DNA from: a virus
Lineage: Duplodnaviria > Heunggongvirae > Uroviricota > Caudoviricetes
DNA: 11,860 nucleotides
Strand: one strand, 5' to 3'
IMG/VR virus record: IMGVR_UViG_2522572021_000016
Positions 10,775 to 11,093 of this stretch are shown here, piece by piece. Position 1 is the stretch's first letter. Every line of letters begins with the position of its first letter. The translations under genes and the position numbers were made by a program. Below the pieces are notes generated by a model, which saw only the letters and a program-made list of their open reading frames with translations, was not told the DNA's origin and did not search any database.

Positions 10775-10850
10775 TGCGCAGAAAATTGCGCAAAAAACTG
10801 CGCAAATCGATCATAAAACCGATCACAAAATCGATCATAAAACCGATCAC
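10775..10850. repeat. 12-bp-periodic array: TGCGCA x3 followed by GATC x4 (two 23-24-bp tandem units), Dam-site cluster
   Basis: TGCGCA at 10775, 10787, 10799 and GATC at 10809, 10821, 10833, 10845, all spaced exactly 12 bp. AAATCGATCATAAAACCGATCAC (10804-10826) is repeated at 10827-10850. Further GCGCA and AACGAAAC motifs and another GATC follow up to about 10990. Confidence 0.6.
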
Positions 10851-11093
10851 ACAGACCAGCAGAGAAAAGCCAGGTATGACGCGGCTTGCAGGGGGGAAAG
10901 GCCACCGGAAAAAGTGCGCATTTTTCTCAAAAACGAAACGCAACAGGAAGCGCAAAACGAAACCGATACGCGATGATCGAAAAAGCGCGCAAATTTACCG
11001 GATTCGGGTAAGCAATTTTGCCTGATTTGGGCAAAATACGGTGTCGCCGTAACAGTGACATTGACACCAAAACAGTGACACACAGGAGGCCCG

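Follow-up and report, generated by a model that had tools for sequence, protein, structure and literature searches.

Packaging-signal mimicry by phage satellites is already known. P4, SaPIbov5 and EcCICFT073 have no terminase and bear packaging signals of the helper type (cos, cos and cos1 respectively), and in EcCICFT073 an altered cosB and the protein Rpp retarget the small terminase subunit (TerS) of the helper (PMC6739421). In phages that fill their heads by the headful mechanism, the packaging site (pac) is recognized by oligomeric TerS with N-terminal helix-turn-helix (HTH) domains (PMC4737164; PMC9611059). PICMI satellites are packaged as concatemers in full-size heads, in a headful-like manner (PMC10803314). 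The 'type C' phage-inducible chromosomal island (PICI) EcCIMP1, which encodes PerC and an antirepressor, is mobilized by a P22-like helper, and its packaging signal is unknown (PMC11773190). Here, a stretch of 11,860 nucleotides (IMG/VR record IMGVR_UViG_2522572021_000016; hereafter the window) is described, which was found to be 100% identical to the chromosome of Escherichia coli O145:H28 RM12581 and which contains a satellite-like island with a periodic array of TGCGCA and GATC motifs. The array is the core of a non-coding module of about 235 bp (10745–10980). This module probably mimics the pac site of Shiga toxin (Stx)-converting phages related to 933W.

The proposed signal resembles those of P4, SaPIbov5 and EcCICFT073 in that a satellite without a terminase carries a packaging signal of the helper type. 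Their signals are cos sites, however, whereas the proposed one is of the pac type and consists of a fragment of terS, the gene for the small terminase. The island also differs from EcCICFT073 in that tblastn of the window with TerS revealed no DNA-binding domain of the Rpp or TerS type. Like PICMI and EcCIMP1, the island encodes an integrase, regulators and a primase but no capsid or terminase genes. No pac site could be identified in those two satellites, whereas the island offers both a candidate pac site and a candidate helper family from sequence alone.

Sequence similarity between the module and phage terS

The link between the module and phage terS was seen only when a short query (10740–10990) was used and the E-value limit was relaxed to 10. 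Megablast against phages gave no match, and blastn at E ≤ 1e-5 gave a 50-bp match to an ant gene only. With the short query, blastn against phages matched 228 records, nearly all of them Stx-converting phages, including 933W, VT2-Sakai, Min27, P13374 and TL-2011c. The GATC units align over 35 bp at 88.6% identity within terS of over 200 Stx phages besides 933W and VT2-Sakai, and within that of these two. Matches over 153–176 bp were found in terS of PhiR12_3 and PhiR5_2 (E = 3e-6 and 3e-7 respectively). The matched phage gene belongs to phrog_370, 'terminase small subunit', and lies directly upstream of the gene for the large terminase subunit (TerL), overlapping its start. PHROGs alone identified the product as TerS; searches of Pfam, NCBIfam and PDB sequences with 933W TerS returned nothing useful.

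The terS gene of 933W contains AAAATCGATCATGAAATTGATCATAAAACCGATCATGAAATCGATCATGAC, in which four GATC sites at 12-bp spacing encode KIDHEIDHKTDHEIDHD. Downstream of these units the gene continues with AATGACGCGGGTTCCGG, then with TGCGCA-type units and then with AGAAACGAAACG. PhiR12_3 terS has TGCGCA units (encoding SAQKNAQKSAQ) at the place where 933W has GATC units. One order of parts is common to satellite modules and phage terS genes, namely TGCGCA units, CGATCA units, ATGACGCGGNTT, TGCGCA units and AAACGAAACG, and the module is collinear with codons ~45–100 of terS in 933W-like Stx phages. RM12581 itself carries an Stx2a prophage at argW, whose terS contains the array. Local alignment of the module with this prophage gene gave a score of 66, compared with 22.8 ± 3.0 (maximum 37) for 1000 dinucleotide shuffles (z = 14). 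Read in the phage frame, the island sequence is a stop codon followed by KNAQKIAQKTAQIDHKTDHKIDHKTDHTDQQRKARYDAACRG. This relic TerS frame has the stop upstream, no start codon and frame-shifting G-run indels. It was also the only match when the window was searched by tblastn with TerS, neither the HTH nor the core domain of TerS being present in the island. These comparisons indicate that the module is a homologue of the internal repeat region of terS in 933W-like phages.

Structure and conservation of the module

In the array, TGCGCA starts at 10775, 10787 and 10799, with a fourth copy at 10915, and GATC starts at 10809, 10821, 10833 and 10845, with a fifth copy at 10975. The patterns TGCGCA-N6 (three times) and GATC-N8 (four times) are both found a single time in the window, and neither arose in 200 dinucleotide shuffles. 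A first-pass annotation had described a periodic TGCGCA/GATC array, and the periodicity is real, with each set spaced exactly 12 bp. The single exact 12-bp register that it gave for the whole array holds within each hexamer class but not across the classes: the step from the last TGCGCA core to the first CGATCA core is 9 bp, which puts the two classes off any common register. The tandem duplication that it noted was found as an exact duplication of the 24-bp unit AAATCGATCATAAAACCGATCACA, and the related motifs that it saw further on were located as GCGCA at 10916, 10950 and 10987.

All seven units of the array are consecutive 12-nucleotide (four-codon) blocks of one ancestral frame (KNAQ KIAQ KTAQ IDHK TDHK IDHK TDHT). 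Read on the minus strand, the CGATCA units are TGATCG (four copies, 10808–10849), and one further TGATCG lies on the plus strand at 10974; the second cluster is chiefly of the TGCGCA type. The array region has no annotation in RefSeq, and an Rfam scan of the region gave no credible RNA family. On the minus strand of 10775–10805, adjacent TGCGCA palindromes can form short hairpins, which together with T-runs were scored as terminator-like. These hairpins are probably a by-product of the palindromic repeats, and they could damp leftward transcription.

Nine copies of the module were aligned, and conservation among them spans about 10745 to 10980 and then ends. All parts of the module are given on the plus strand. 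Its left edge (CCCCTCCGATGGGGTGAAAAATCCCTGA, 10745–10768) includes a stop codon at 10765–10767 which, according to frame analysis, closes the ancestral TerS frame upstream of the repeats; this edge is kept in eight of nine satellite relatives, whose flanks further left differ. Next come three 12-bp units AAAAAN-TGCGCA (10769–10804), which contain the putative TerS-binding hexamers. The relatives have two to four copies, and the same units occur in terS of PhiR12_3-type phages. These are followed by four 12-bp units AAAY-CGATCA-YA (10805–10852), with one Dam site each, which together constitute the 24-bp duplication. Three or four CGATCA units are present in eight of the nine loci. In locus L064 the third unit has GATT, leaving two GATC sites, and one phage was found with five CGATCA units.

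The central segment (10853–10908) is not repetitive. It contains the conserved ATGACGCGGCTT (10876–10887) and a G-run of variable length and is collinear with AATGACGCGGGTTCCGG of phage terS. It separates the two repeat clusters and is a candidate for the region of cleavage or for a spacer. The second cluster (10909–10925) is a single AAAAAG-TGCGCA-TTTTT unit in the window and one to three units in relatives, and its counterpart in phage terS is GAAAAATGCGCAAAAAAC...AAAAACTGCGCAAAT. The right part of the module (10926–10980) holds AAAACGAAAC at 10930 and again at 10954, the GCGCA at 10950, and GATGATCGA with TGATCG at 10974–10979. It has AGAAACGAAACG(CAACAG) in common with phage terS, and conservation stops at its end in all relatives.

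Copy number of the units changes among relatives in 12-bp steps. The length of the G-run differs by 1 bp among satellites, which shifts the frame, and no frame is open in all copies. The first-pass view that the region is non-coding and that the open reading frames (ORFs) across the array are artefacts was thus borne out, as these frames are not conserved among relatives. Within the hexamer cores, 3 of 42 columns are variable, compared with 54 of 169 elsewhere in the module (Fisher p = 8e-4), although this test used nine related sequences and is indicative only.

The same ~235 bp are retained in islands that differ in replicase, in left cargo and in right cargo. The accompanying replicase is either D5/alpha-like or of the DUF927 type. 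The left flank is a lipoprotein-like gene in the window, and PerC-like genes or a cytosine methyltransferase in relatives; on the right stands YeeE or a small ORF. L064 (1483–2622), in which a DNA cytosine methyltransferase and an adjoining gene for a 358-amino-acid protein are found in place of ProQ/PerC, shows that the upstream cargo slot varies.

Hexamers in phage terS and comparison with P1 pac

Eighty terS loci were gathered from IMG/VR, ranging from 100% to 38% protein identity, and hexamers were counted in the 55 distinct genes. Within nucleotides (nt) 121–320 of these genes, 252 copies of TGCGCA were found, versus 8 in the remaining ~600 nt. The hexamer is met in each of the three codon phases, where it is read as Cys-Ala, (Val/Leu)-Arg or x-Ala-Gln/His. 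Because the hexamer is kept while the encoded peptide changes, TGCGCA is selected as DNA. On these counts the repeat region of terS is under DNA-level selection, which is not pac function as such. The hexamer region lies directly 3' of the part of the gene that encodes the N-terminal HTH DNA-binding domain, and this location matches that of pac in several headful phages. In loci L125–L148, which are IMG/VR terS genes with ~40% identity to 933W TerS, five to eight TGCGCA at 9–14-bp spacing were seen in nt 140–230 of the gene (encoding SAQSAQSAQ or VRK). Since such distant TerS relatives carry TGCGCA arrays, the hexamer array is family-wide and extends well beyond the Stx phages.

The pac site of P1 consists of TGATCA/G hexamers, four on one side and three on the other, and this sequence was matched in P1 at 100%. 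In the P1 record, the pac cleavage positions and a site for integration host factor (IHF) are annotated at nt ~186–350 of pacA. Residues 5–94 of 933W TerS match phrog_1711, the family of P1 PacA, at 3.1e-5, and residues 3–104 of P1 PacA match phrog_370 at 1.9e-4. A helix N.NTAR(R/T) is common to PacA and 933W TerS, and the N-domain of 933W-family TerS appears to be a remote homologue of that of PacA. In both pacA and 933W terS, clusters of GATC hexamers follow just after the N-domain and are read as Asp-His codons. In 1990, Sternberg and Coulby reportedly found that cleavage of P1 pac depends on methylated GATC sites.

The module may resemble P1 pac in its layout, with hexamers in two groups around a central segment, the first group including the four GATC hexamers and the second being chiefly of the TGCGCA type. 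The 933W-type helper resembles P1 in that its hexamers belong to the small-terminase gene and come directly 3' of the part for the N-terminal DNA-binding domain. Unlike P1 pac, the module copy is non-coding, lies in a satellite-like island and has a strict 12-bp spacing. It also differs in having a TGCGCA class without a Dam site, which is the ancestral type in this TerS family, and no IHF site was seen in the module. In P22 gene 3, Sf6 gene 1 and SPP1 gene 1, pac is embedded in terS, as in the proposed Stx-phage site. The pac sites of P22, Sf6 and SPP1 are not known to be made of long periodic hexamer arrays.

Distribution in E. coli

A set of 5426 complete E. coli genomes was surveyed with the module as query at E ≤ 1. 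Matches were obtained in 412 genomes. The full module is present in 119 of them; in about 293 the match is only partial, and wherever such a genome was sampled it is the 35-bp stretch inside terS. The module carriers among those listed are largely serotypes or isolates of E. coli that produce Shiga toxin (STEC). In 14 of 17 sampled carriers a second matching place is present, which in RM12581 is the terS of the Stx2a phage. RM13514, a sister isolate, is reported to have an Stx2a prophage with a short tail, similar to the prophages of the O104 and O103 outbreak strains (PMC3893438).

Sp7 of O157 Sakai, which is P4-like and is packaged although defective (PMC2669165), was considered as a relative of the island and dropped, because the Sakai genome has the terS site only and no module (row H169).

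Gene content of the island

The island is ~11.9 kb long and is inserted between yicC and dinD in RM12581. It encodes an integrase, an HTH protein, a Rha-family regulator, a 488-amino-acid AntA/Icd-like protein, a D5/P4-alpha-like primase-helicase and SSB, as well as a ProQ/FinO protein, PerC, two proteins of unknown function and a small ORF. The tyrosine integrase stands at the left end (1–1323, plus strand; RefSeq annotation). The primase-helicase (5622–7445, plus strand) was identified by Pfam D5_N, Pox_D5 and DUF5906 and by phrog_864 at 4.5e-184. Directly 3' of the primase gene, and outside the array, nine exact TGTTCACC repeats occur on both strands at 7459–7679, where 0.41 would be expected. 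In the GenBank record of P4 this octamer, TGTTCAC(C/A), is labelled 'ori type 1 repeat' where it occurs in crr, directly 3' of alpha. Because the nine TGTTCACC repeats match these in octamer and in position, the replication origin of the island is most likely at 7459–7679 and not in the array.

A 12-bp direct repeat, GAGCAGATTCAA, is present at both island ends (window 11777–11788; locus L001 9248–9259), its left copy overlapping the 3' end of yicC, and it is the probable core of the attachment site. Repeats of GTGTACA(C/T)A near both island ends (window 11698–11720; L001 9380–9440) resemble integrase arm-type sites. The features in common with P4 are the alpha-like primase and the TGTTCACC repeats only. 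Annotation and family scans of the window revealed no capsid, tail or terminase genes in the island and none of the P4 hallmarks sid, delta and psu. With an integrase and direct repeats, regulators, its own primase and origin repeats, a length of ~11.9 kb and no virion structural genes, the island looks like a phage satellite of PICI type that has a P4-like replication module without sid, delta and psu.

Several further features of the island and its relatives were observed. An intact ORF of 488 amino acids (3352–4818) combines an AntA/AntB N-terminus with a C-terminus that is Icd-like and repressor-like (phrog_6196); in RefSeq it is split into two partial pseudogenes with a small minus-strand gene between them. 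At 11042–11080, directly upstream of the ribosome-binding site of a 58-amino-acid ORF at 11094, two (A)ACAGTGACA repeats lie 20 bp apart together with a perfect TTGACA. These repeats, a possible operator, are kept only in relatives that have the 58-amino-acid ORF. Fifty base pairs at the end of this ORF (11219–11268) match the ant (anti-repressor) gene region of the 933W-like Shigella phage Ss-VASD at 88%, a further trace of exchange with Stx-type phages. In most related islands the module is followed by a Q antiterminator gene (e.g. L003 4147–4539) sharing 83% identity with the Stx2a-phage Q, and an island-borne Q could switch on, or respond to, the late (stx-containing) operon of the helper. 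A separate, true P4-like satellite (L151; NZ_CP007136.1 4558700–4590000) is located at selC, adjoining the pathogenicity island LEE (locus of enterocyte effacement), and has psu, a delta/ogr-like gene, a gene in the sid position and an alpha-type primase.

Proposed role of the module and alternative explanations

The explanation favoured here, at a probability of roughly 0.65, sees the module as a mimic of a pac site, by means of which the terminase of an Stx phage would package the island by the headful mechanism, possibly in a Dam-sensitive way as in P1. Upon induction of the Stx prophage, the island would excise and replicate from its own P4-like origin. The ring-shaped TerS of the helper would then bind the clustered TGCGCA and CGATCA hexamers, at their 12-bp spacing, through several HTH domains at once. 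TerL would cut nearby, and multimeric island DNA would enter heads by the headful mechanism. Going by P1 pac, recognition or cleavage may depend on the methylation state of the four GATC hexamers. The binding of TerS, the pac function in the phage, the packaging of the island and any dependence on Dam are what we infer.

In a bolder form of this proposal, regarded as distinctly unlikely, the module may act as pac without excision of the island. Inducing the Stx2 phage would in that case lead to headful packaging from the chromosome (lateral transduction), gated by Dam methylation as in P1, with the hybrid array of TGCGCA and GATC serving two specificity classes of TerS. In RM12581 the module is oriented terS-to-terL towards dinD, selC and LEE, which starts about 32 kb downstream. 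Since ~32 kb falls within the first ~60-kb headful, LEE would be reachable in this way. The direction of lateral transduction rests on the usual terS-to-terL packaging direction of other phages. If true, such packaging in situ would make a small island the coupling between Stx-phage induction and mobilization of LEE.

Several points count against a pac-site mimic. PacA and TerS are only remotely homologous, and only in the N-domain (BLASTP E = 0.009 for the N-terminal ~90 residues), and the literature was searched for a mapped pac site of 933W-like or other Stx phages and none was found. Compared between islands, the module is no more alike overall than the flanking genes are (identity 77–93% versus 84–99%). 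Three of the 17 sampled module carriers have no second site, and STEC phylogeny and shared ancestry confound the co-occurrence with Stx phages. The island in the window has lost Q through a 1.3-kb deletion (between about 11220 and 11231) and may be decaying. Induction and packaging of the island by an Stx phage are, moreover, proposed from sequence.

The main alternative is a functionless relic, a fragment of phage terS gained by recombination with an Stx phage and carried passively, which is considered unlikely. The module is clearly derived from terS and is untranslated, further genes are common to the islands and Stx phages (Q at 83%, Rha/Ant-like genes), and the unexceptional identity relative to the flanks is consistent with passive carriage. 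A relic accounts less well for a fragment that is trimmed to the repeat region, without HTH-coding or core-coding DNA, and that keeps identical boundaries despite differing replicases and differing flanks on both sides. The hexamer cores are also significantly more conserved than other columns at ~20% divergence, the position of the module relative to Q is unlike phage gene order, and the repeat copy number is still changing. Improbable in turn is a terminase decoy, in which the array would chiefly titrate helper TerS and reduce phage packaging as a form of interference or defence. The evidence for homology to a TerS site applies equally to a decoy, the repeat number is above that of 933W (seven units versus about five), and satellites commonly interfere with helper packaging, as with Rpp of EcCICFT073 (PMC6739421). 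Against this, an island with an integrase, a primase and an origin but no packaging genes obviously needs a pac site, and the decoy and pac roles are not mutually exclusive.

The first-pass annotation had suggested other functions, namely an epigenetic phase-variation switch for the neighbouring genes or a binding array for a partition or replication protein. A switch of the Dam/OxyR/Lrp type, or another operator array for the neighbouring genes, now seems very improbable. Like the pap, agn43 and gtr switches, the module has clustered GATC in non-coding DNA, with four GATC in 40 bp upstream of the small ORF, and in relatives the small ORF and the Q gene lie downstream of it. The search for OxyR half-sites that had been suggested was run, and no OxyR tetrad was found within 3 mismatches, Lrp sites not having been formally scanned. 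No sigma-70-like promoter is present within 10745–10980, and the module persists where the genes downstream of it vary (small ORF, YeeE) or have been deleted (Q). The module further differs from pap, agn43 and gtr in its 12-bp spacing, its variable neighbours and its terS-derived sequence; homologous phage units have TGCGCA in place of GATC, and origin from a terS fragment is already sufficient to explain the sequence. In RM13514, about 98% of GATC sites are methylated genome-wide, a figure that is not site-specific (PMC3893438). The Dam sites of the array may still matter; if so, gating of packaging, by analogy with P1 pac, is likelier than switching of expression. Least probable of all is a replication origin, a SeqA-bound region or a centromere-like partition site, for which the periodic, iteron-like layout and the clustered GATC, as in oriC and P1 oriR, could be adduced. 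The P4-type origin repeats, however, adjoin the primase gene 3 kb from the array, the module occurs with both replicase types, no ParA/ParB-type gene was found by annotation and family scans, and no DnaA-box-like element was seen by inspection. What remains of the protein-binding suggestion is that the array probably binds a protein; a partition or replication protein in that role is unsupported.

Other candidates were set aside. Neither lambda cosN nor a P2/P4 cos was found near the array within 3 mismatches, and an early impression that GGCTTGCAGGGGGGAAAGGCCAC is P2 cos-like was dropped. Pattern scans with GATCANAAAANNGATCANAAAANNGATCA of IMG/VR and of a one-genome-per-species collection returned unrelated organisms only. 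An origin of transfer (with AAGTGCGC as a MOBQ nic-like sequence) and a small RNA target of the island ProQ/FinO protein, both judged by eye, were put aside because terS homology explains the sequence.

Significance for Stx phages and their hosts

The comparison of the module with phage terS links a family of PerC-carrying islands to 933W-like Stx phages as their probable helpers; a literature search for satellites of Stx phages turned up none. It also provides a concrete candidate for the pac site of Stx phages, which is independently backed by the enrichment of TGCGCA in three codon phases and by the remote homology to PacA and P1 pac. If the island competes for the terminase, the yield of Stx phage and the spread of the toxin genes could change. 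The island could also move PerC-type regulators of LEE, together with other cargo such as the lipoprotein, YeeE and the methyltransferase, between strains.

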